Made by a program: the position numbers and the translations under genes. 24,423 nucleotides of DNA, taken from positions 1-24,423 of the IMG/VR virus record IMGVR_UViG_2681813316_000024; one strand, 5' to 3'. The notes below the pieces were generated by a model. It was not told the DNA's origin, did not search any database, and saw nothing but the letters and a program-made list of their open reading frames with translations. This DNA is from a virus. Its lineage: Duplodnaviria; Heunggongvirae; Uroviricota; Caudoviricetes. This document shows positions 4,385 through 24,423 of this stretch, piece after piece. The number at the start of each line of letters is the position of its first letter. Positions within the stretch are counted from its first letter, which is position 1.

Positions 4385-5861
4385 TAACCTGAGCGACGAA
4401 GAGCAAATCGAATTGCTCGAGCTACTCGAAGAAGAAGAGAACTACCGGAACACACACCTGCTATATGAATTTACGCCATACAGCAAACAGCGTGAGTTCA
4501 TCGACGCCGGGCATGACTATCCAGAGCGATGTTTTATGGCTGGTAACCAGCTTGGTAAGTCATTTACTGGTGCTGCTGAAGTCGCGTTTCACCTTACAGG
4601 GCGTTATCCGGGAACAAAAGGCTATCCGGATGATGGTAAATATGGCGGGGAGTGGAAAGGTAAGCGTTTCTATGAGCCTGTTGTCTTCTGGATTGGCGGC
4701 GAGACAAACGAGACGGTAACCAAAACGACTCAACGCATCCTGTGCGGTCGTATCGAAGAGAATGACGAGCCAGGCTACGGTTCCATACCGAAAGAAGACA
4801 TCATTAGCTGGAAGAAGTCTCCTTTCTTTCCGAACCTTGTTGATCACCTTCTGGTTAAGCATCACACGGCTGATGGCGTTGAAGATGGCATTTCAATCTG
4901 CTACTTCAAACCATACTCGCAAGGCCGTGCTCGCTGGCAGGGTGACACAATCCACGGCGTGTGGTTTGACGAAGAGCCACCATACAGCATTTATGGCGAA
5001 GGTCTTACCCGTACCAACAAATACGGGCAATTCTCAATCCTGACGTTTACCCCGCTGATGGGGATGTCTGACGTTGTTACCAAGTTCCTGAAGAATCCCA
5101 GCAAGTCGCAGAAAGTGGTCAACATGACCATCTATGACGCTGAGCACTACACCGACGAGCAGAAAGAGCAAATCATCGCATCCTATCCTGAGCATGAGAG
5201 AGAGGCGCGTGCTCGCGGTATTCCTACGATGGGTAGCGGACGAATCTTCCAGATACCGGAAGAGACGATTAAGTGTCAGCCGTTCGAGTGTCCTGATCAC
5301 TTCTACGTAATTGGCGGGATGGATTTCGGATGGGATCACCCACAGGCGCAGGTTCAGCTTTGGTGGGATAAGGACGCAGACACAATCTACGTTTCACGCG
5401 TGTGGAAGGCGAAAGAAAAAACAGCCGTTCAGGCATGGGGAGCCGTTAAATCATGGGCGCATAAAGTGCCAACAGCATGGCCTCATGACGGAAACCAGCA
5501 TGAGAAGGGCGGTGGTGAGCAGCTCAAAGGGCAGTATGCAGACGCTGGATTTATGATGTTGCAGGAGCATGCGACATGGCCTGATGGCGGTAATGCTGTT
5601 GAGCCTGGCATCACTGAATTGCGAGACATGATGCTCGATGGCCGCTTCAAAGTATTCAACACCTGTGAGCCATTCTTTGAGGAGTTCCGCCTCTATCACC
5701 GTGATGAAAACGGGAAGATCGTCAAGCTTAACGACGACGTTCTCTCAGCCGTTCGCTATGCATACATGATGCGCCGCTTCGCCAAAATGATGCGCGACAT
5801 CAAAAAACCAAAAGAGAAAAAGATACCAGCCCCAATCAGGCCCATCGCACGGAGAACTTAA
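4362..5861 (+). CDS. Terminase large subunit (P22 gp2-like, headful packaging)
   Basis: 499-aa ORF, same length as recalled for P22 gp2; position between small terminase and portal; stop TAA directly abuts portal ATG. Confidence 0.9.
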
Positions 5862-8027
5862 ATGGCCGACGAAAACAGACTCAATTCCATTCTGTGTAAG
5901 TTTGACGCGGACTGGATGGCGAGCGATGAAGCCAGAACCGAGGCGACAAATGACCTGTATTTTAGCCGAGTGTCGCAATGGGATGACTGGCTATCAAACT
6001 ACACTACCCTGCAATATCGGGGACAATTCGATGTTGTTCGCCCGGTGGTCAGGAAACTGGTCGCAGAGATGCGCCGGAACCCTATCGACGTTCTCTTCCG
6101 ACCCAAAGACGGCGCTAATCCTGATGCTGCCGATGTGTTGATGGGAATGTATCGTACTGATATGCGCCATAACACGGCAAAGATTGCCGTTAACGTTGGC
6201 GTTCGTGAGCAGATAGAGTCCGGCGTTGGTGCATGGCGTCTGGTCACCCAGTACGAAGACAACGACCCAACAAGCAACAATCAGGTAATCCGACGCCTGC
6301 CAATCCATGAAGCCTGCTCACACGTCATATGGGACGCCAACAGCAAGCAGATGGATAAGAGCGACGCTAAGCACTGCACGGTGATTAACGCTTTGTCACG
6401 CAATGGCTGGAAAGAGTTCGCAGAGGATTACGGTATTGATCCTGACACCTTGCCATCTTTCCAGAATCCGAACGATACATGGCTGTTTCCGTGGGTATCG
6501 AATGATGTCGTCTACGTCGCTGAGTATTACGAGGTCGAAGAGAAGAAAGAGAAAGTCTTCATCTACCGCGACCCGCTGACAGGTGAGCCGGTAAGCTATT
6601 ACCAGCAGGATATCAAAGACGTCATCGACGACCTGGCTAATCGTGGATTCATTAAGGTAGCAGAGCGCAAGGTGAAGCGTCGGCGTGTGTATAAGTCGAT
6701 CATCACCTGTACGCAGATACTGAAAGACCGCGAGAAGATAGCCGGAGAGCATATTCCAATCGTTCCAGTGTATGGTGAATGGTCATTCGCTGGTGACAAG
6801 GAGTGCTACGAAGGAGTGGTAAGGCTGACGAAAGACGGTCAACGCCTTCGTAACATGATCATGTCGTTCAACGCCGATATTGTTGCTCGTTCACCGAAGA
6901 AGAAACCGACCTTCTTCCCTGAGCAAATCGAAGGCTACGAATACATGTACGGTGGAAATGATGACTATCCGTACTATCTGCAGAACAGGACCGATGAAAA
7001 CGGTAACGACCTGCCGATTGGTCCAATCTCCTACATGGAAAACCCTGAAGTGCCGCAAGCCAACGCTTACATGCTTGAGGCAGCCACCAACGCAGTGAAA
7101 GAGGTGGCTAGTCTTGGCGTGGATGCGCAGGCGGCAAATGGTCAGGTCGCTTTCGATACCGTCAATCAACTGAACATGCGGGCAGACCTTGAGACATACG
7201 TGTTTCAGGATAACCTGGCTACCGCAATGCGACGTGATGGCGAGATTTATGCCTCAATGGTCAACGATATTTATGACGTTCCTCGCCATGTAACGCTGAC
7301 TCTTGAAGACGGAAGCGAGAAAGACGTTCAACTCTACGCGCAAGTTGTAGATTACCAGTCCGGCAATGTGGTCACACTCAACGACATTCGCGGTCGCTAT
7401 GAGTGCTATACAGACGTTGGACCATCCTTCCAGAGTATGAAGGAACAGAACCGCGCAGAGATTCAGGAGTTACTCACCAAGGTTCCACAAGGTACTCCAG
7501 AGTTCCAGATGCTGATGCTGCAATACTTCACGCTGCTTGATGGTAAAGGCGTCGAGATGATGCGAGAGTACGCGAACAAGCAACTGGTGATGATGGGGCT
7601 GAAGAAACCAGAAACACCTGAAGAGATGGAGATGGTACAGCAGGCTCAACAGCAGCCGCAGCAGCCATCAGCAGAGCAAATTCAGGCGCAGGGTATCCTT
7701 CTGCAAGGTCAGGCTGAATTGCTCAAGGCAGAGAACCAACAGGCGCAGATTCAGGTTGAAGCCGCCAAGGTTGAAGCCCAAAACCAACTCAACGCCGCGA
7801 AGATTGCGGAAATCTTCAACAATATGGACCTAGACAAGCAGGCAGAACTGCGTGAGTACCTCAAGCTCGTAGGTCAATTCCAGCAACAGCGCAGCAAAGA
7901 TGCTCGTGCTAACGCTGAGCTGCTTCTTAAAGATGCAGACCAGACTCATTCACAACGCATGGATTTCGCGAATCTTATGCGTCAAGTTCAAATCCCCTCC
8001 GGCGGAGTAGCCGAGACACCTCAATAA
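5862..8027 (+). CDS. Portal protein (P22 gp1-like)
   Basis: 721-aa ORF; long runs match recalled P22 portal ([51 protein letters not shown]); Q/A-rich C-terminal helical barrel. Confidence 0.95.
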
Positions 8028-8040
8028 GAGAGAGTTAACC

Positions 8041-8952
8041 ATGGACCAAACCACCGACATTCAGGCTTCTGAAGAATTAACCCTGCCCGGCAATCATGCA
8101 GCGGCATCTGCTGATGGCTTAGTTGTCGATAATGCCAACGACAACGCAGGTCAGGAAGAAGGCTTCGAGATTGTCCTGAAAGACGATGAGAAACCAAAAC
8201 AAGACCCGGCAACTAATGCTGAATTTGCCCGTCGCCGCATTGAACGCAAACGCCAGCGTGAGCTTGAGCAGCAGATGGAAGCGGTTAAGCGTGGAGAGTT
8301 GCCGGAGCACCTGCGGGTGAACCCTGAGTTACCAAAACAACCAGACCCTAACGATTATCTTTCCGAAGATGCACTGGCTAAGTACGACTATGACCAGAGC
8401 CGCGCACTGGCTGCCTTCCAGCAGGCAAACAGTGAATGGCAGATCAAGGCTATGGACGCACGAAGCCAGGCTGTCGCCGAGCAGGGTCGCAAAACTCAGG
8501 AGTTCACCCAGCAATCAGCGCAATACGTCGAGGCAGCCCGTAAGCACTACGACGCAGCGGAAAAGCTCAATATCCCTGACTATCAGGAGAAAGAGGATGC
8601 ATTCATGCAACTGGTGCCGCCAGCAGTCGGTGCCGACATCATGCGCCTCTTCCCGGAGAAATCCGCCGCTCTCATGTATCACCTTGGTGCTAATCCTGAG
8701 AAAACACGCCAGTTGCTGGCGATGGACGGGCAATCCGCGCTGATTGAACTCACTCGACTGTCAGAACGTTTAACTCTCAAGCCTCGAGCCAAGCCAGTTT
8801 CAGAAGCCCCGTTACCTGATGAACCCATTCAGGGACACGCTGTTGCTGCAAATATTTCTGCGATTGAAAAGCAGATGGAAGCGGCAGCAAACAAAGGGGA
8901 TGTAGAGACATACCGCAAGCTCAAGGCGCAACTGAATAAAGGAATTCGATAA
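8041..8952 (+). CDS. Scaffolding protein (P22 gp8-like)
   Basis: 303-aa ORF matching recalled P22 gp8 ([35 protein letters not shown]..., C-terminal [11 protein letters not shown]). Confidence 0.9.
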
Positions 8953-10247
8953 TGGCATTAAATGAAGGTCAACTGGTCACGTATGCTCTGGATGAAATCA
9001 TCGAAACCATCCAGAACCTGACGCCAATGGCGTCTAAAGTGACAAAATACACCCCTCCGGCAGAATCCATGCAACGTTCAAGCAACACCGTGTGGATGCC
9101 TGTTGAGCAGGAAGCGCCAACTCAGACTGGCTGGGATTTAACTGGCAACGCTACCGGTATTCTGGAACTGTCCGTGAAATGCAACATGGGCGATCCGGAT
9201 AACGATTTCTTCGAGCTTCGTGCAGATGACCTGCGTGATGAGCGTTCTTACCGTCGCCGCATCCAGGCATCAGCTAAAAAACTGGCGAATAACATTGAGT
9301 CAGCAATTGCCAAACAGGCAACTGAAATGGGCTCACTTGTTGTTCACGATACCCGAGCAATTGGTCCATCTACTGGCCTGTCTGGCTGGGATTTTGTGTC
9401 TGATGCAGAGCGCCTGATGTTCTCCCGTGAGCTAAACCGCGATATGGGCATCAGTTACTTCCTGAACCCTGACGATTACCGCAAAGCAGGCCGCAACCTG
9501 GTAGATGGTGACATCTTCGGGCGCGTTCCTGAAGACACGTATCGCAACGGTACTATTCAGCGTCAGATTGCTGGCTTTGATGAAATTCTTCGCTCACCGA
9601 AACTTCCGGCAGTTACCAAGTCAGCCGCTACTGGTGTAACTGTTTCTGGTGCGCAGAAGTTTAAGCCGCAGGCATACACCCTTGATACCGATGGTAACAA
9701 AGAGAACGTCGACAACCGTGTTGCAACGGTGACCGTATCCTCCACCACCGGATTTAAGCGCGGCGACAAAATCAGTTTCACTGGTGTGAAATTCCTGTCT
9801 CAGATGGCGAAGAACGTGCTGACTGATGATGCGACTTTCTCAATCACCCGTGTGATCGATGGTACTCACATCGAAATCACGCCGAAGCCGATTGCGCTTG
9901 ATGACGTTTCACTGACAAAAGAAGAGAAGGCTTACGCTAATGTAAACACCTCTCTTGCTGATGCCACCCCGGTAAACGTTCTGAACGTGGCAACAACCAC
10001 CGCTAACGTGTTCTGGGCTGATGACTCAATCCGCCTGCTATCTCAGCCGATCCCGGTAACCCATGAACTGTTTGCTGGCATGAAAACGTCTTCCTTCAGC
10101 ATTCCTGGCATTGGTGTTAACGGCATCTTCGCAACGCAGGGTGATATCAACACTCTGTCTGGTAAGTGCCGTATTGCTGTGTGGTATTCAGCATGTGCTG
10201 TACGACCAGAGGCAATTGGTGTTGGTCTGCCTAACCAGACTGCGTGA
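8952..10247 (+). CDS. Major coat protein (P22 gp5-like)
   Basis: 431-aa ORF; start overlaps scaffold stop (TAATGG); motifs [35 protein letters not shown] match recalled P22 coat. Confidence 0.95.
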
Positions 10248-14285: not shown

Positions 14286-15692
14286 ATGGCTACTTGGCAA
14301 GGAACAAACGGCGGATTGTTGGCTGGTATCGGCGGCGTCAACTCAAACGCTCCGAGCGTAAATGACATCGGCAATACGCTTCAGCTTATCAGGCAGAACA
14401 ATGATATTGAGCGTTCAGGCGCTAACAATGTTGGGCTGACTGCTTTGCAAGGCCTTTCAGGTATTGCGGGGGTGTTTCAGCAGGAAAAGCAGGCTCAGCG
14501 GCAGAAAGAATTTCAGCAGGCATACGCTAATGCTTATGCGTCTGGTGATCGCGGTGCTTTGCGTCAGTTAGCTACTGAATATCCAGACCAGATTGAATCC
14601 GTTCGTAAAGGCATGGGATTCATTGATGAAGACCAGCGCAATTCCATCGGTACCTTAGCGGCTGGCGCTCGCCTTGCGGCATCGTCTCCAGAAGCGATGC
14701 AATCATGGCTGCAAAACAACGCCAAGGAACTGACTCGCGTAGGTGTTGACCCTAATAACGTTGCTCAGATGTATCAGCAGAATCCTTCAGGATTTGGTGA
14801 GTTTGTTGATCACCTTGGGATGGCTGCTCTCGGTCCGATTGACTACTTCAATGTTCATGACAAGATGGCTGGTCGTGAGATTGACCGAGGCAGGCTGGCA
14901 GAGACAATCCGCAGCAATCGGGCTGGAGAAGCACTTCAGGCGAGAGGGCAAAACCTTTCCTATCAGTCAGCAATGACTGGGCACAATATCGCAGCACAAC
15001 GCTTGGCTCTGGATCAGCAAGAGTTCGGGTTTAAGATGCAGCAAGCGCAGGAAAAGGCTCAGCAGTTGATTAGCGAAGCACCTAAGCTGTCAGTAAACAT
15101 GGAAAAAGGCATCGAGACGGCTGTAAACAATGCTACAGCATCATCAAACTCAGCCAATTCTATGAGTGCGCTTGCTCAACAGTTCAGAGCAGAAAAACCA
15201 ACGACAGGTTTGTTCGGTAACGCACAGAACATGTTCGCAAAACTTACCGGAAGCGATACAACATTGCGTGATTTGCGCATCCGCCAAAATGCCCTTGTTA
15301 ACAGTCAGGTTCTTAAATTCCTACCTCCAGGCCCCGCAACGGATAAAGACGTTGAGATCGTTCGGCAGGGGGCACCAACTGACATGGATAACCCTGAGAC
15401 GGTCGCAAGATGGCTTGATGCGATGGCAAACCTTGAGCGACGAAACGCGCAGTTTAATGAGTTTAAAGCCGAGTGGATGAGCGCGAATGGCAATCCAGGA
15501 CAATCGCGTAATGGCGGTCAGATATTGGGGTTGGATGTTAAAAAAGGTGAATCATTGGGGAGTGCCGTTAAGCGGTATATGTCAATGAATACTGACGCAG
15601 CGCCAGCACAAGATTCGACACCTTCAGGAGAACCACGGAATCAGGTTGGATCATATACCTCAAAATCAGGCATTCAATTTACGGTGGAATGA
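14286..15692 (+). CDS. Ejection protein (P22 gp20-like)
   Basis: 468-aa ORF following gp7 homologue; size and position match P22 gp20. Confidence 0.8.
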
Positions 15693-17920
15693 TGAAAGTA
15701 ACTGCAAACGGTAAGACATTTACCTTCCCTGATGGTACGAGCACGGAAGATATTGGCACCGCCATTGATGAGTATTTTGCTGGTCAGGCTGTTCAGCAAC
15801 AAACAGTTAATCAGGCCAATAATGAACCAGCACGGGAAGAACCATCATTGATGCAACAAGCTGGCGATTGGCTCACTGGTGGTCAAAGTGCAGGGCAAAT
15901 TGCAGAACAGGCTGGTCGTGGTCTGGTAAACATACCATTTGACGTATTGCAGGGTGGCGCAAGTCTGATTAATGCAATCAGTCAGGGGCTTGGGGGGCCA
16001 AAAGTATTGGATGATGTTTATCGTCCAGTAGACAGACCGACAGACCCCTACGCGCAAGCTGGAGAGTCAATAGGCGGTTATCTTGTTCCTGGAGCAGGTG
16101 TAGCTGGAAACATGGTCATTGGTTCTCTCGCTGACGCGGCGAATCAACGGGGTGATTTTGCCGAAAATGCCGCTATTAATGCCGGACTTAACATTGCTAC
16201 GCATGGCCTGATAAATGGCGTTACCCGTGGTGTTCGTGGTGCATCAAATATAATTAGTGGCAATAAAACATCTGCACAGAGAGCGACCACTGCGCCAACA
16301 GAAACATCACCATTCTCAGGTGATGCCGCTGCAGCAACAAATCCTGAGATTCATGCCGCAGAGGCAAGAGTAGCACAAGGTGTACCAATGATGCCTGCGA
16401 CGAGGAACCCAGAGGAAGTCGTTCGCACAGTAGCAGCACAAAAAAGGCCAAATCTCGCTTCATCGCTTGATGAACTAGATATCAATCCTCAGGCTGAAGT
16501 TCTGGAGTCTGCTGAAAGGCTTAATGTTGATTCATTACTCCCTTCACACTTTTCCGGGAACGAGCAATACAAGGCAGTTGAGCAAGCAATCAAGTCCCGT
16601 GCGGGTTCTGCTCTACAGGTGCAGGAAAATGAAGCAATCAGGCAGCTAGCACAGGGCGCGGGGGAGATAATTGATCGCGTTTCCGGTGCAAAAGATGCTC
16701 TTGGTATGAGCGACAAGTTTATTGATACGGTCAATGGAAGAATGTCTGCGCTGATGAAACGAAGCGACCAGCTTTATCGCAATGTTGAAAAGGCGATGCC
16801 TGCAGGTGCAAAAATTGATGCGCCATCAACAAGGTCAATGCTCAAACAGGTGGCAGAAGATCTTGGCGGGATGAAAAACCTTGACCCTATTGAAAAGAGA
16901 GTCTTTCGGGCAGTTAATCCAGGCAAGAACGGCGCATTAACTTATGCAAATCTCAATAAGCAACGACGACTTGTTGGTGATGCACTTCATAAGAATTCTG
17001 GACCATATAAAGATGCTGATCGCGCTGCTTTATCGAGGCTTTACGGTTCGCTCGCCGATGATCAAAAGGCGGCGCTGTCAGAGACAAATGCATTACGTGA
17101 TTTTGAAGTTGCTCAGAGGCTTGTTCAGATGCGAAAAAGCATGGAAGAGCAAATGATTAATCTAACTGGCAGAACGCTGAACGGTGATGTTTCTCGCAAA
17201 GCAACTACAGCACTACAGGCAATGTCGAAAGGCGATGCCAAAGGATTTCGTGAATTGATGCAAAACACGCCGTCCAGGAAGCTAAGAACCGAGCTACTGG
17301 GAACAGGTCTTCGGGATATGCTTTCGAACGGAAAACGTGGCGCTGATTTTAATCCTGCAGGGTTTGCTGACTGGTATCAAAACATGTTAGCAAACGGGCA
17401 GATGCGCAATCTTGCCCGACATTTACCAAAAGAGACTATGTCAGGTCTGAACGATGTATATAAGGTCGCAAAGGCTATCAAAGACGCAAAATCTTACGAG
17501 ATAACTACAGGAAGACTAAACGAGTTCGTCAAACGGTTTAATCGCGTCACTGCGGCAAATGAATTTGTTGCTAACCATGCCCAACGCATTGGCACTGCGG
17601 TTGGTTCAACTGTGTCAGGACCGTTCAGTGCAGTAGGTGCTGTTGCTGGGTCAGAAATTGGGGCAAAAGTCGCCAGCAAAATCAGGGTGATGGGCGGCGC
17701 TGCATCAATGGAATCTGCAGAAAAGCTAATTAGCTCACCAGAATTCCAGAAAGCAGCAAGGCTGGCAGTAAAACAAGCACCAGAAAGCATCGTTGATACA
17801 ACTGTAAGACGCTCTTCTGCTTGGCGCTCGTTTTACAACTCACTTCCAGAATCAGATAAGAAAACCATATCAAGGCTAGGCATCATGTACTGGATGAACA
17901 GTGATGATAACCAGAAGTAA
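15689..17920 (+). CDS. Ejection protein (P22 gp16-like), extended
   Basis: 743-aa ORF overlapping gp20 stop; last gene before tailspike as in P22-like phages; Ala/Gly-rich segments. Confidence 0.75.
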
Positions 17921-18198
17921 CGGAAAGCCACGGATGGTTAGTTGCAGTCTTTTTTATATAAATCTCTGTCCATAAATCCTCCTGTTTACCAAAACTATAT
18001 CAAACTTTAACGCAATGCTGCGCAACTTAAGTGACTGTCAGGTTGATAACAGACACTCTTTTTTGCATGATTCCTTTAGACCATCACAATTGATGAAGAA
18101 TCATGAAAAGAAGAACTCTTCTAAAGTCTTTGCTCGGCCTGACGTCACTCTTACCAGTTAAGTTTGCAGCATCTCAAAACCTGCAAGGTAAAAGTATA

Positions 18199-20436
18199 AT
18201 GTCAGACATTACACCCAATGTTGTAGTGAGTATGCCTTCGCAACTCTTCACTATGGCTCGTTCTTTTAAAGCCGTAGCTAATGGAAAGATTTATATCGGG
18301 AAAATTGACACTGACCCGGTAAACACTGAAAACCAGATTCAGGTTTATGTAGAGAACGAAGATGGTTCTCACGTTCCTGTTTCGCAACCAATCATCATTA
18401 ACGCTGCTGGATATCCGGTATATAACGGACAGATTGCCAAATTCGTAACCGTGCAAGGCCATTCTATGGCTGTTTATGATGCGTATGGTGCGCAGCAGTT
18501 CTATTTTTCGAATGTGCTGAAGTATGACCCTGACCAACTCAGGCAAGATCTTGCATCTCAAGGAGGTGTTAATCTGGTAAACGGAGCTATCTCACAGGAA
18601 GATCTTGTTTTGCAGTCGATCACAAAAATTCCAAGTTATGATAATTCTAACGTAGTCCAGGCGTGGCGCGATAGTGTTGCGACCTACGGGTATGTTTACT
18701 TCTCTAATCATTCAAAAAATCAGATGGTGTACACCGTACCGTCTACAGCTGCTAACGCTTCTTTCCTTGCGAACAGTAAAGTAATCATTGATAAAAATGT
18801 CACCCTGAGATTCGACAGTGATCTGTACTCACTGTTTAAATCGTTGCAGTACGAGGGGGAGGGTACGTTTGAATTTACGCACCTGAACTTTAAAGCAACC
18901 GGTGGAGAAGTGGATTATCTGGCTAAGCAGGCCATCCTCAACCGAAACCCTATTCGCATGAAGCGAGTGGAATGGTCAGATTGTAAAGTTTATTCCATAA
19001 ATGGTGACACGTTCTTCTATGAAGGTGAAGTCACCATATCCTCAGATAGCGCAGCTATCTTCCCCTTAACTACTGACCGTACAACAGGCCTGTTCGCACC
19101 AATAGATATTGGAGAGCATATTTCTGCACATATTCGTATGGAATCTCAGGCCGCCTCAGAAGTTGGGATTGTTCTGCGATGCTCTGGTGGTTGGATGATG
19201 TTCTATGGGGCACCAGGTGCTACACAGTGGTCTTATAGACAGAAACCAATTGGTGGTCCAGTAGCAGAAGGAACTCCATTCCCGCTGCCAGGAGGTTTAC
19301 TGTCGTACGCCCCGGGCAAAGCAACCGTTGGCGTATCACTGCAAGGTAAAAACTGGGCGCAGATAACGATGAATGGCGTTGGGATACGTTTGCCCTTTGA
19401 TACTGCTGATGTAGGGGATGTATACGAAGTTGGGTTTGTTGCACTGACCACGGCATCTGGAGGTTCTGCGCGTGTAACTGGATTATGCAGCTACACCTCT
19501 GATAATGGCGTGCACGGTAAGCCTCCACTTAATATCCTTATCCACGGTGATAGTACAGCTGAGGATTTCATTTCCGCGTTCAGCTCGTACATTCCGCAAT
19601 TAATGGATGGAGCGAACGGCCACCGTTCACATAGCATTGTAAACAAGGCAGTTGCCGGACAGACAATGAGGCAACAGTTAGATCTCCTGAAGGCTCAGGG
19701 GCCGGGTGATGCTTACATCGTTATTATGGTTGCCGGAACTAACGAAGGGCAGGCAAACCAAAACGGCGATTATATGGCGTCATTGATAGATGAGTTTGTC
19801 TTATATTGCAATGGCCTTGGTCGTATCCCTGTTTGGGTTGAGCCGTGGATGTGGTATAGCCAGTCATTTATTGGAGGGGCTGGCCAGCCATCTTCTAACT
19901 ACGACGGTGTCGCAGAGTTGCGAGAAGCTGGTAAACGCCAGATGATGAAATATGGCAATAACGTCATTTGTGTAACAACAACTCACCAGCTCCCGGCCCC
20001 ATATCCAGAGTATTTCAATACGCAATACGACCCACTTCTGCGTGATGACATTCACCAAAGCCAGTTAGGGTATCGTCTGTATGCGGAAATTATCTGCTCT
20101 GCCATTATCGACTGGTGGTCGCGTGTTGATTACACGCCAAGAGCAGCTGTTCAATGGTGGGCTGGAACAAACGTAACAGTACAGGCACCGTCAAGTTTAA
20201 CTGCCAATTCAATTAATATTAAACTGGCAGCCACTTCATTTGCGAATGGTAATACTGTTCTAACGCTGCCAAGGTGGTGTAGACCAACAGTAACAAAAAA
20301 TGTCCCTGTACCGTTCACTGCTGATGGAATATCTTACGGTATGGCGATGGCAACAATAAGCGCATCAACCGGGTCGATAACAATTAATGGATCTACTACA
20401 GCCTCACCAATATTTTACATTGATGCTTCCTGGTAG
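18199..20436 (+). CDS. Tailspike: P22 gp9-like head-binding domain fused to C-terminal SGNH/GDSL esterase domain
   Basis: ATG 18199 gives [11 protein letters not shown]...[20 protein letters not shown]...VLKYDPDQ (P22 tailspike N-domain). C-terminal part has SGNH blocks: G450-D451-S452-T (19546-19557), VAGQT, A512-G-T-N515-E (19732-19746), D616-D-I-H619 (20044-20055). Confidence 0.85.
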
Positions 20437-20441
20437 AAAAA

Positions 20442-20456
20442 GGCCGCAATGCGGCC
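20442..20456. terminator. Bidirectional intrinsic terminator between convergent tailspike and SGNH genes
   Basis: GGCCG-CAATG-CGGCC hairpin; T-run on the - strand side (TTTTT) and weaker ATCTTTTA on the + side. Confidence 0.6.
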
Positions 20457-20461
20457 ATCTT

Positions 20462-21157
20462 TTACTTCACATGTTTATTAATCTCTCTCATCCAAACGGC
20501 ATAGCCATTTTTATTTAAATGCACTCCATCATCAAAGTACAATTCAGATTTTTTATCAGATAAAAAATCTGCAGGAACTTCTATTATATTGCAGTTAACT
20601 ATGCGACTACATGTTCTATCAATAATAGAGTTAATCATGCTTATTCTTGAATTGACATGGTCTACGTCTTTTCTTGCCCCGCTTATGATTGGCAAAACTT
20701 TTAATGCATAAATATTATCAACCTTTGATACACTCTTAAGCAGTTTGTCATAATCATCAAATATTTCCTCTTCGGTTTTCGCACCCATCGCATCGTTAAC
20801 TCCACCTTCAATTATCGCAGCTTTATATCCAGACGCCCCATAATTTTCTGATAGAGTTAGGATCTGATGTATAGAGTATCCTCCGACCCCCATATTAACA
20901 TATTTAAAGTTTAACCCATATGGTGACATTCCTTGTATGAGCGAGTCGCCATAAACCACAATGTCGCCGTCAGCTTGATTAGCATTCATTTTTTTAAAAT
21001 CTAGCATCACAGCCTGAAAGTCGTTAACTTTTTTTTGAGATAAATAATTTCTAATTGAACGAACAGACAATACTATAATAACTATTGCAATCAGAATAAA
21101 CAGCATTGCCAAATATTTATTTGCTTGAGACTTTCTATTTGTTTGTTTTGACTTCAT
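20462..21157 (-). CDS. Membrane-anchored SGNH/GDSL hydrolase (putative carbohydrate O-acetyl transfer/esterase domain protein)
   Basis: 231 aa; N-terminal TM helix YLAMLFILIAIVIIVLSV; block I VVYG70-D71-S72-L (Ser codon 20942-20944), block II GVGG, block III GGVND, block V DDGVHLN; good RBS AAGGAAA; AT-rich. Confidence 0.8.
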   Translation of the reverse strand: MKSKQTNRKSQANKYLAMLFILIAIVIIVLSVRSIRNYLSQKKVNDFQAVMLDFKKMNANQADGDIVVYGDSLIQGMSPYGLNFKYVNMGVGGYSIHQILTLSENYGASGYKAAIIEGGVNDAMGAKTEEEIFDDYDKLLKSVSKVDNIYALKVLPIISGARKDVDHVNSRISMINSIIDRTCSRIVNCNIIEVPADFLSDKKSELYFDDGVHLNKNGYAVWMREINKHVK

Positions 21158-21241
21158 TGCATTTTCCTTTTAATAAGGTTTAAGGTTAAAAATATATTTA
21201 CGCTTCAAATCAACGAATTGAGAAAATTATTCAGCCAACCA

Positions 21242-21520
21242 CTAACTAGACTTGCAATCTAATCTTATATATGATCTGAGTAAGAGTGTAAAAATCCGCT
21301 TAATCCTTCTTAAGTAAAAATCGGAAAAAGAAAATTTACCGCTATTTAAATTTTTAAAAATAATACTTGAAATTAAAAGGCTAGATATTATGAAAAATAA
21401 ATCAAACCCATTGAACTCTCCAGAAAATGCGCTTGGGAAAGCGTGAAACATCACAACAGCGACTGCTCTTAAACCATCTATACCAGCTCTATACTTTATC
21501 ATTTTTATTGTCCAATTCAT
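21242..21520 (-). pseudogene. Truncated N-terminal fragment of a second AT3-family acyltransferase
   Basis: 92-aa ORF with AT3 N-terminal signature YRAGIDGLRAVAVVMFHAF...GFDLFFIIS...FYLRRIKRIF, stops after about 90 residues; no convincing RBS. Confidence 0.5.
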
Positions 21521-21816
21521 CTACAGTGAAAGAGCAAAGAAAAACAATGCAATATATCTCATGTGACTACCCCTAAAATAAATTTAATGATAATAACATC
21601 ATGAGGATAAATTTAGAAGTGGGAAGATCGGAAATGCTCATTGAGCAGCAGAAAAAATATCACTGACTCTGTATACACATACAGTATTTTTTGTCTGTTA
21701 TTGATCATTGGATACTTGAGCCTAGCGTAAAAGTAATATGAATGATACAGTATGCTTATATAATTGATTTTTGCTCTCGGTGTAAGTTCGGATTGTATTA
21801 TATAACCAGAAAATAT

Positions 21817-21835
21817 CCCCAGAACTAAGCTGGGG
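21817..21835 (-). terminator. Candidate intrinsic terminator downstream of AT3 gene
   Basis: CCCCAG (21817-21822) / CTGGGG (21830-21835) inverted repeat with 7-nt loop; on - strand followed by AUAUUUU. Confidence 0.35.
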
Positions 21836-21849
21836 ATTCATGTCATATG

Positions 21850-22890
21850 TCAGCTTGCTAGTGCGATCTTCCTAAGCCTGTGACCTATATTTATAGATGG
21901 TTTTTCAATTACCTTATAAGAAATAGTTGCTAGTGCGATCGTAGCTAATAGGTATAAAACAAAAATAATAAAATTAAAATCTGTGTCCATGTCTATACTG
22001 ACAGATACAATCTCTAAAAAGAATGGGTGAATCAAGTATACAGAGTAACTTATCGATCCCAGGAAAACCAATAATCCTACATTCAATTTTACCCGTGTAG
22101 TGAGCAATAGCGTCAATACTATGCCTGTAAGATAGCTAGCAATATAGGAGGAAGCATTTTCCCCATGCCCATAGTCTTTATTGTAGGACATTAAGCAAAT
22201 CGGAGCAATCGCCACTAGGAATGTTATTAAAAATACAATGCACATATTTCTTTCTGATCTCGATGCAATCCCAATGCTCACTGAACGCCATAAGCTACCA
22301 AAGAACATTAATGACATAGCTAGCGGTATTGCCACAGGAACTTTTTTATCAAGAACGAATCTCACGTATGAGAAAGCAAGAGCGGTTGCAATAAGTCCTA
22401 TAGAAATTAAAAATAAAGAAACCTTACTCTTTAATAAATTTACTTTGAAAAGAAACGCACAGGAAGCATAGAAGAACAACTCAATTATTAGCGTCCAATA
22501 AACACCAAACATATCTGGAGATCTCAGTAAAGATTGAAGCATGGTAATATTAGACAACAGAGTTCTTATATCAAGTGGTCTATGAGTTACAAACAAAAAA
22601 GTAAAGGCCGCCAGAAATACTGAAAACCAGTAAGCGGGATATAGTCTAAAAAACCTTGATATAATGAACCCGGATATCGCTCTTTTCCCTTCCTTTAGGC
22701 TGTAAGGTATTACCATGCCACTTAACACAAAGAAGCAAACAACACCAACCTGACCAAAGTTAACATGCTTAAATAAAAAACTGTTATGCAATGGTGTTCG
22801 CTCTATGAAATGTGCACATGCAACCATCAGGGCTGCAAGTCCACGCAAAGAGTCTAGGAATTCTAGACGATTTCCATTTCTTATAGACAT
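21850..22890 (-). CDS. AT3-family integral-membrane acyltransferase (Oac-like putative O-antigen O-acetyltransferase)
   Basis: 346 aa, about 10 hydrophobic segments; N-terminal signature LDSLRGLAALMVACAHF...GVVCFFVLSGMVI...RFFRLYPAYW typical of acyltransferase family 3; between tailspike and int as oac is in Sf6; AT-rich. Confidence 0.85.
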   Translation of the reverse strand: MSIRNGNRLEFLDSLRGLAALMVACAHFIERTPLHNSFLFKHVNFGQVGVVCFFVLSGMVIPYSLKEGKRAISGFIISRFFRLYPAYWFSVFLAAFTFLFVTHRPLDIRTLLSNITMLQSLLRSPDMFGVYWTLIIELFFYASCAFLFKVNLLKSKVSLFLISIGLIATALAFSYVRFVLDKKVPVAIPLAMSLMFFGSLWRSVSIGIASRSERNMCIVFLITFLVAIAPICLMSYNKDYGHGENASSYIASYLTGIVLTLLLTTRVKLNVGLLVFLGSISYSVYLIHPFFLEIVSVSIDMDTDFNFIIFVLYLLATIALATISYKVIEKPSINIGHRLRKIALAS

Positions 22891-23267: not shown

Positions 23268-24423
23268 TCACTTCACCTTTTCATCAAGCCAATCCGCCCA
23301 CCACTGCATCATTTCTCTGCGCTTATCGAGATACTGAGCGTGGTTGTAAATCCCGCGCACAGATCCGCCGTTGGCATGTGCCAGTTGCACTTCAATAGCG
23401 TCAGCAGGCCATTCGTGCTCGTTCATAATCGTGCTGAATTCATGCCTGAATCCGTGACCGCTTTCCAGACCTTCATAGCCGATTTGTTTGATCACAAGCA
23501 GTACAGCGTTCTGGCAAATTGGCTTCTTCTTATCGTTGCGCCCGGCAAAAACAAACTCTGACACTGGTTTAGTGATTGAGCTTAGCGTAGTGAGAAGTTC
23601 AATCACCTGGTCTGACATAGGAACCACATGAATTTTTCGACCCTTCATCACACTGGCGTCGATGGTGATAATCCTGTTTTCAAAATCGACGTTCTTCCAT
23701 AGCATGGAGCGAAGCTCTTTCGTTCTTAGGGCTGTGTAGCGCAAAACTTTAGTCGCAATGAGCGATACGATGCTCCCTGAAAATGTTGCCAGTGCTTTGT
23801 TGAATGCAGGGATCTGGTCTGCAGGAAGAAACGGGAAGTTCTTCTTGCGGTATCCCTTCATGGCGTCAGCAAGGTCAGGTGCCGGGTTATATTTAGCCCT
23901 ACCAGTGACAATAGCGTAACGGAAAACCTCGCCGCATCTTCTGCGGGCTTTATTTGCTCGCTCCATTGCACCGCGATCTTCAAATCTGCGGATTACTTCC
24001 AGTAGTTGCATCGGCTCAATATCCTGAATTTCAAGACCGCCGATGATGGGTAAAATGTCGTCATCAAACATTTTTGCAAGTTCATTTGCATAGCCCTGAC
24101 CAGACTTGCTTCTTGTGCTCGTACCATTCCTTGTAAATGGCGCTAAAGGAATTGTTGTTAGACGAAGCCTTTTTCGCCTTTACCGGATCGATGCCAACCG
24201 AGATGTCTTTCCTCGCAGTCCATGCTTTATCCCTTGCCTCTTGCAAAGTCATAAGCGGATATTTTCCGACGGTCAGGATTTTCTCCTTACCGTCAATCTT
24301 GTAGCGAAGCTGCCATACCTTTTTCCCTGACACAGGGACATAAAGGTACAGGCCATTACCATCGAGTAGGCGGTATGGTTTTTCTTTCGGCTTTGCTGCT
24401 TCAATCTGCTTAACGGTGAGCAT
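23268..24423 (-). CDS. int: Tyrosine integrase (P4-type, arm-binding N-domain), interrupted by a frameshift near 24072-24100; start codon at window edge
   Basis: Two consecutive - strand ORFs (24082..24423, 113 aa, arm-type domain; 23268..24071, 267 aa, catalytic domain with R...HGFRHEF...RGIYNHAQY Tyr region). The 267-aa frame read upstream gives ...QGYANELAKMFDD continuous with the N-terminal part. Confidence 0.75.

Follow-up and report, generated by a model that had tools for sequence, protein, structure and literature searches.

Receptor-binding proteins with an SGNH hydrolase domain are established in phages and prevalent in prophages (PMC13123978), and several of them are proven esterases or deacetylases: the SGNH spikes PP99 (PMC6989608), Moo19 and B2 (PMC11654681) and two Klebsiella prophage fibres (PMC13123978). 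In the summary given in PMC10743462, the esterase activity of coliphage G7C gp63.1 is essential for infection and its binding is apparently processive. Shuffling of the P22 head-binding domain has also been documented (PMC10684548). Here we describe a gene in which these two themes meet, the tailspike gene at positions 18199–20436 of IMG/VR record IMGVR_UViG_2681813316_000024, of which the stretch from position 1 to 24,423 was analysed (24,423 nucleotides, referred to below as the window). We consider it likely that its product is the spike of a P22-like virion which carries a receptor-modifying SGNH esterase directed at the O88 O-antigen of Escherichia coli. A preliminary description had proposed a P22-type head-binding domain fused to an SGNH esterase, and the results support its interpretation of both halves of the chimera. 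It had also stated, correctly, that deacetylating SGNH tailspikes are known, the SGNH esterase spike being a real and already known type of phage receptor protein.

A P22-type adaptor joined to an SGNH module

The first ~110 residues of the 745 amino acid spike were expected to be a P22 gp9-type head-binding domain, which is what they are: residues 1–113 match the full PF09008 profile (Table 1), and a PDB sequence search aligned this part with Sf6 gp14 (7sg7; E=1.7e-64 over residues 1–121) and P22 gp9 (~1e-48). The receptor part, as had been claimed, is replaced. In an AlphaFold2 model (mean predicted local distance difference test [pLDDT] score 84; above 90 for residues ~140–745) the neck is followed by a small alpha/beta domain, a beta-sandwich, the SGNH domain and a second sandwich, in place of the beta-helix endoglycosidase of P22-type spikes; no match to a beta-helix or pectin-lyase-like fold was obtained anywhere in the spike with the model and Foldseek. 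The SGNH domain had been assigned to the C-terminal third. It spans residues ~440–645 and is not terminal, since a separate sandwich (~650–745) follows it. Foldseek returned two-domain matches covering the first sandwich and the SGNH domain with CE2 esterase 2waa, YxiM 2o14 and PVA esterase 9kr0, while the preceding sandwich matched galectin-like lectins, including the AAL galectin-like lectin. From the model, this sandwich is probably a glycan-binding module placed ahead of the esterase, as in CE2 enzymes.

The four SGNH blocks lie where the preliminary description had put them, namely GDST with Ser452, the conserved Gly487, GTNE with Asn515, and DDIH with Asp616 and His619. A search with residues 121–745 yielded 85 homologues down to 29% identity, 63 of which were aligned. 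Over these 63, which diverge to 24% identity, G450, D451, S452, T453, G487, G513, T514, N515, D616, I618 and H619 are each at least 90% conserved, and the motifs are therefore not chance matches. The spike alone matches Pfam Lipase_GDSL_2 (PF13472) over positions 3–178 of 178 with 19.7 bits (E=1.3e-3) against a gathering threshold of 32.9, and the same profile is found at E<=1e-3 in 38 of the aligned homologues (best 1e-13). Alignment of the family with E. coli TesA by hhalign (E=9e-6; manually entered TesA sequence) paired S452, G487, N515, D616 and H619 with S10, G44, N73, D154 and H157, respectively, with the same spacing for G487 and N515. PDB sequence searches gave N-terminal matches alone with the single protein and a weak match to TesA (E ~5e-4) with the family profile; an NCBIfam search gave no match for the spike. 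The model has the three-layer alpha/beta/alpha, flavodoxin-like SGNH fold, and, judged by topological position, each motif is found at the strand end or helix start that is canonical for it. The structure prediction suggested as a check thus returned an SGNH fold and not that of a beta-helix glycosidase. Because the full-span Pfam match, the homologue matches, the TesA alignment, the conservation and the AlphaFold2 model agree, we regard the catalytic core, as modelled, as a genuine SGNH fold arranged in a CE2-like manner.

It is very improbable that this domain only binds, its active site being dead, or that it transfers acyl groups instead of hydrolysing them. In a family diverging to 24% identity, the complete Ser/Gly/Asn/Asp-His set is kept at the level given above, the top structural matches of the domain are hydrolases, and an acetyl donor is absent for a virion protein outside the cell.

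A second alternative is that the spike also depolymerises its glycan, the esterase being accessory to a cryptic glycosidase or lyase in residues 140–435 or at the trimer interface. Beta-sandwich folds can be catalytic, and GH43-associated and GH16-like sandwiches are among the weak Foldseek matches; moreover, the epsilon15 spike is reported in outline as a barrel with a protruding esterase, and P22-type ejection normally requires cleavage. Nevertheless, no glycosidase or lyase family was matched in Pfam, NCBIfam or the PDB, the sandwich most closely resembles non-catalytic lectins or the CBM-like domains found in CE2-type esterases, and the spike has no beta-helix, all of which makes an additional depolymerase quite unlikely.

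The C-terminal sandwich is mosaic over its last 20–60 residues in close relatives, where identity drops, and megablast matches to the spike gene end at nucleotides 2129–2174 in six genomes. In phage vB_EcoM_ESCO9 (OM386654; Justusliebigvirus; locus L008, 3001–3177), 59 codons are 81% identical to the C-terminal end of the spike. They sit in the tail-fibre cluster, partly overlapping a tiny open reading frame (ORF) annotated 'endo-N-acetylneuraminidase', and look like a recombination relic of this sandwich domain.

Spread of the receptor module and its link to serogroup O88

According to identity profiles, proteins that have another N-terminus are homologous to the spike from about residue 120 onwards, and the junction and neck, residues 114–139 (YDPDQ|...), form the recombination boundary between adaptor and receptor module. 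The same module stands behind the P22 head-binding domain, Tail_spike_N (PF18668, TSP1/gp66 type), the T7 tail-fibre N-terminus (PF03906), a tail-collar domain (PF12571), Calx-beta and unassigned N-termini. Judged by these comparisons, the receptor module is a mobile cassette found on at least five kinds of N-terminal adaptor. In E. coli 602687, for instance, it forms part of an 800 amino acid protein of a non-P22 prophage, labelled 'SGNH/GDSL hydrolase family protein' in RefSeq. Among 1.84 billion cluster representatives, 243 belong to the family at E<=1e-3 and 42 at E<=1e-30. Many prophage copies of the module are present in IMG/VR; a tblastn search of 50,697 GenBank phage records revealed no close relative in cultured phages. 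In PHROGs, the whole spike corresponds to phrog_17606, 'unknown function'.

The preliminary description had called an SGNH domain on a P22-type virion unusual. It is indeed rare, the full spike occurring in nine of the ~1146 genomes (out of 5426 complete E. coli genomes) which have a P22-type spike N-terminus. On the other hand, a 49% identical version, which passes the PF13472 threshold, follows the head-binding domain in another P22-like virion module, a divergent one, and SGNH receptor-binding proteins as such are common in prophages (PMC13123978). An 84% identical version is joined to the head-binding domain in a non-P22 context.

E. coli A30 (NZ_CP092500; locus L004, 2567–5594) has the same spike in a P22-like prophage adjoining bioA/ybhB. 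Just upstream of it are an inserted ISEc22 and another tailspike N-terminus, which is truncated; these are evidence of a past spike replacement. E. coli NADC1036 carries the module twice, on the chromosome and on the 38.7-kb replicon NZ_CP076267.1 (2021–3666), which may be an excised or plasmid-like prophage copy.

The receptor module alone was found in 13 of the 5426 genomes. In one of these carriers, LR-06, the wzx and wzy genes of the O-antigen cluster are labelled O88 family in RefSeq. Of the 5426 genomes, 25 carry an O88 wzy gene at >=99% identity, and these include all 13 module carriers (hypergeometric p=9e-33, or ~1e-12 if five lineages are counted as independent). The hosts of these carriers are pig, chicken, cattle, horse and human, and the module occurs in four or more prophage contexts, including P22-like prophages at argW, a P22-like prophage adjoining bioA/ybhB and non-P22 prophages with 800 amino acid spikes; in the non-P22 prophage of strain XJ55 the spike is just 72% identical at the DNA level. 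The O88 cluster, whose gene products are identical in LR-06 and the culture-collection strain NCTC9088, contains two acetyltransferase genes in addition to dTDP-6-deoxyhexose and GDP-mannose genes. Given the two acetyltransferases, an O-acetylated O88 repeat unit is expected, and the likely substrate of the spike is the O-acetylated O88 O-antigen. The O88 structure is credited to Torgov et al. 1996 (Carbohydr Res 283:223), and O88 is described as branched. Poultry isolates are one reported source of serogroup O88 (PMC3361264, PMC9311855).

The esterase could instead be aimed at another acetylated surface glycan (colanic acid, enterobacterial common antigen, a K capsule or peptidoglycan), with an indirect link to O88. 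Capsules are indeed the target of SGNH receptor-binding proteins in Klebsiella prophages and Acinetobacter phages (PMC13123978, PMC8471582), and the colanic acid genes, with acetyltransferases of their own, adjoin the O88 cluster. However, colanic acid and enterobacterial common antigen are near-universal in E. coli, so that no serogroup restriction would be expected, whereas the O88 wzy gene accompanies every copy of the module in the 13 genomes over several prophage backbones, hosts and countries. We therefore consider a target other than O88 unlikely. The O88 O-antigen of E. coli thereby becomes the probable receptor of a cassette family whose members public records list as 'hypothetical', 'phage tail protein' or generic 'SGNH/GDSL hydrolase'.

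In the favoured reading, residues 1–113 dock the spike, presumably a trimer, onto the P22-type tail, and the beta-helix glycanase typical of such spikes has been exchanged for the cassette of alpha/beta domain, lectin-like sandwich, SGNH esterase and C-terminal sandwich. The sandwich domains would bind the O88 O-polysaccharide, and the Ser452-His619-Asp616 triad, with Gly487 and Asn515 forming the oxyanion hole, would hydrolyse O-acetyl esters and leave the backbone uncut. Deacetylation could render binding reversible, receptor-destroying and possibly processive, so that the virion would move down the O-antigen layer until its needle meets the outer membrane, as with G7C gp63.1.

Several points weigh against this interpretation. 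DNA ejection by P22 is classically tied to O-antigen cleavage (PMC10743462), and for this reason an esterase-only P22-type virion is mechanistically unproven. The Lipase_GDSL_2 score of the spike itself is under the gathering threshold, the check on the triad in the model covered the topological positions of the motifs, and the acetylation of O88 is deduced from gene content alone. Furthermore, the relatives detected in cultured phages are distant (23–28% identity) and all are annotated 'hypothetical'. P22 is the best-developed system for in vitro DNA ejection triggered by lipopolysaccharide; a natural P22-type virion apparently lacking a glycan-cutting activity would therefore offer a direct test of the need for O-antigen cleavage. 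The question it poses is whether a P22-type needle can get to the membrane only by way of cleavage, or whether deacetylation of a processive kind, as proposed for G7C, suffices.

Downstream acetyltransferase genes and the prophage

The coordinates of the spike, its domains and motifs, and the features downstream of it are collected in Table 1.

Table 1. Features of the tailspike gene and of the adjoining region in the window
Feature	Position	Strand	Evidence or remark
Tailspike gene, 745 amino acids plus stop	18199..20436	+	ORF listing; NZ_CP039298 coding sequence boundaries; phrog_17606 over residues 4–745
P22-type head-binding (virion adaptor) domain, residues 1–113	18199..18537	+	PF09008 E=1.5e-66, full profile
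Junction and helical neck, residues 114–139	18538..18615	+	Identity-profile switch at ~residue 120; model helices 111–136
Small alpha/beta domain, residues ~140–250	18616..18948	+	AlphaFold secondary structure, pLDDT ~86–93
Beta-sandwich (galectin/CBM-like), residues ~251–436	18949..19506	+	Foldseek
SGNH hydrolase domain (predicted acetyl-esterase), residues ~440–645	19516..20133	+	
Block I, GDST 450–453, nucleophile Ser452	19546..19557	+	Alignment, hhalign; follows model strand 444–450
Block II, Gly487 (AVAG), oxyanion hole	19657..19659	+	Alignment, hhalign
Block III, GTNE 513–516, Asn515 oxyanion hole	19735..19746	+	Alignment, hhalign
Block V, DDIH 616–619, triad Asp616 and His619	20044..20055	+	Alignment, hhalign
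C-terminal beta-sandwich, residues ~650–745	20146..20433	+	Model pLDDT ~95
Bidirectional terminator-like hairpin (GGCCGCAATGCGGCC)	20442..20456	.	Between the convergent spike and conversion genes, six bases past the stop codon
Membrane-anchored SGNH protein, 231 amino acids (SGNH-231)	20462..21157	-	PF13472 E=9e-14
AT3 acyltransferase N-terminal fragment, 92 amino acids	21242..21520	-	PF01757 positions 2–81, E=2.3e-4; unannotated in RefSeq
AT3 acyltransferase, 346 amino acids (Oac-like O-antigen O-acetyltransferase; AT3-346)	21850..22890	-	PF01757 E=2.3e-30; phrog_3333 'O-acetyltransferase' 5e-56

The conversion genes downstream of the spike lie in a region of 27–37% G+C. They supply the AT3 and SGNH domains which characterise O-antigen O-acetyltransferases on separate ORFs, fused homologues being present in strain SRY149 and in IMG/VR locus L021. 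As far as the sequences tell, SGNH-231 is the acceptor-side domain of an AT3-SGNH O-acetyltransferase. At the same position SRY149 has a fused 595 amino acid AT3-SGNH acyltransferase, of which residues 397–595 are 79% identical to SGNH-231, while the AT3 halves show 26% identity. The 92 amino acid AT3 fragment, situated between the SGNH-231 and AT3-346 genes (21158–21849), is probably a deletion remnant. It points to a fused AT3-SGNH gene from which most of the AT3 part was lost, a different AT3 gene having been gained beside it.

The SGNH-231 domain occurs in six of the 5426 E. coli genomes, and in all six directly after the spike. Among IMG/VR prophages, the fused gene follows Tail_spike_N-type spikes with 87–91% identical receptor modules (L018, L021–L024), and a split pair, SGNH-232 and AT3-342, follows a 55–65% identical module (L026, UViG_2808606796_000003). 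In the last of these (5536–9052) the spike homologue is broken by an insertion sequence element with an rve-family transposase, the SGNH and AT3 pair downstream being intact. A30, PEC301 and 602687 have no acetyltransferase adjoining the spike. Strict linkage of spike and conversion genes was consequently rejected: of the nine P22-type carriers three have the exact module, three a fused variant and three none, and the linkage is frequent, not obligatory. Paralogy between the SGNH domain of the spike and SGNH-231 was also rejected, since the two show no similarity.

Conversion genes beside tailspike genes are normal for temperate phages, and on this ordinary reading the esterase and the acetyltransferase would simply act on different positions. 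A functional relationship between an esterase spike and an O-acetyltransferase that keeps its acceptor-side domain is speculative. We put forward, as a tentative and rather doubtful proposal, that the esterase module and the AT3/SGNH acetyltransferase are transferred together as an 'erase and write' pair, both with the same O88-type glycan as their target. It draws support from four facts: in the E. coli genomes the SGNH half is found only directly after the spike, it accompanies the module on a non-P22 adaptor too, a split SGNH and AT3 pair follows the 55–65% identical module of L026, and the AT3 part was swapped while the SGNH part was kept. Under such a scheme, the prophage may re-acetylate the O-antigen of its host, thereby excluding rival phages or blocking its own spike, and the esterase on the virion may let the phage lineage read or undo such conversion. 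The recurrent esterase-acetyltransferase pair may be relevant to lysogenic conversion and to the use of phages or enzymes as serotype-targeted tools against O88 strains.

RefSeq has the same 745 amino acid coding sequence, with identical boundaries and annotated 'phage tailspike protein', in E. coli PigCaeca_1 (NZ_CP039298), which is 99.5% identical to the window across 6.5 kb. The protein starts at the ATG at 18199 (MSDITPNVV...), collinear with Sf6 gp14 and P22 gp9. The longer mechanical ORF starting at 18103 was discarded because homologues and RefSeq begin at MSDIT. Upstream of the spike are the P22-type virion genes for portal, coat, gp4, gp10, DUF2824, gp7, gp20 (Inj_translocase) and gp16, with Pfam matches for portal, coat, gp10, gp7 and gp20. 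Downstream, the conversion genes are followed by an IntS-type integrase and, in matching genomes, by tRNA-Arg (argW). From this arrangement, with virion genes upstream and conversion and integrase genes downstream, the window represents the late half of an E. coli P22-like prophage. In the favoured reading, the phage is a P22-like temperate one residing at argW of an E. coli O88 strain.

A low-G+C spacer of 278 bp (17921–18198) separates the gp16-like gene from the tailspike gene; in the related PEC301 prophage the equivalent site holds immI-type genes (arc, antirepressor), which are absent from the window. The 743 amino acid protein at the gp16 position (15689–17920, + strand) has no Pfam match, and its counterpart in PigCaeca_1 differs, being listed in RefSeq as a partial lytic-transglycosylase pseudogene. 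Ejection-protein genes are mosaic across otherwise near-identical prophages. The IntS-type integrase gene (23268–24423, - strand) is split into a 113 amino acid arm-binding ORF and a 267 amino acid catalytic ORF by a small indel relative to the intact 385 amino acid intS of PigCaeca_1. Either this copy of the prophage may have lost the ability to excise, or the indel may be a sequencing error.

Comparison with known phage esterases and tailspikes

A spike combining the head-binding and SGNH domains, or an O88-specific phage protein, was not found described in the papers searched; what appears new is the assignment of the receptor to O88 and the recurrent pairing of esterase and acetyltransferase. 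G7C gp63.1 (PDB 4QNL; Prokhorov et al. 2017, as summarised in PMC10743462) is probably similar in function but is not a sequence relative. BLASTP gave no match between it and the esterase part of the spike, and hhalign aligned just the TSP-N-type adaptor of other family members and no esterase part. As far as that summary goes, gp63.1 has a gp66-binding adaptor and other accessory domains and belongs to the N4-like virion of a virulent phage, whereas the spike described here comes from a temperate P22-like prophage.

The SGNH-esterase receptor-binding proteins of Klebsiella prophages and the spikes of PP99, Possum, Moo19/B2 and Aristophanes (PMC13123978, PMC6989608, PMC9569702, PMC11654681, PMC8471582) are likewise serotype-linked and common in temperate phages, but differ in host, glycan and adaptor. 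The CE2 and CE3 enzymes (2waa, 2wao, 2vpt) and YxiM, which rank among the closest matches in structure, also have a sandwich followed by an SGNH domain; these, however, are soluble bacterial enzymes that act on plant polysaccharides, show 13–17% identity and have no virion adaptor. The downstream genes resemble OafA/OafB-type AT3-SGNH and Oac-type AT3 enzymes (PMC9558356) in their AT3 membrane and periplasmic SGNH domains, and OafA/OafB/Oac-type conversion genes are also phage-borne and located between tailspike and integrase; in the window the domains are separate ORFs accompanied by an AT3 remnant.

The spikes of P22 (gp9), Sf6 (gp14) and HK620 occupy the same gene position, after the ejection-protein genes, and share the head-binding domain, residues 1–113 being ~90% identical to Sf6 and ~67% to P22. 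In those spikes a trimeric right-handed beta-helix endoglycosidase makes up the receptor part, in contrast to the sandwich-SGNH-sandwich arrangement found here, and the spike belongs to the P22 tailspike family via its adaptor domain only.

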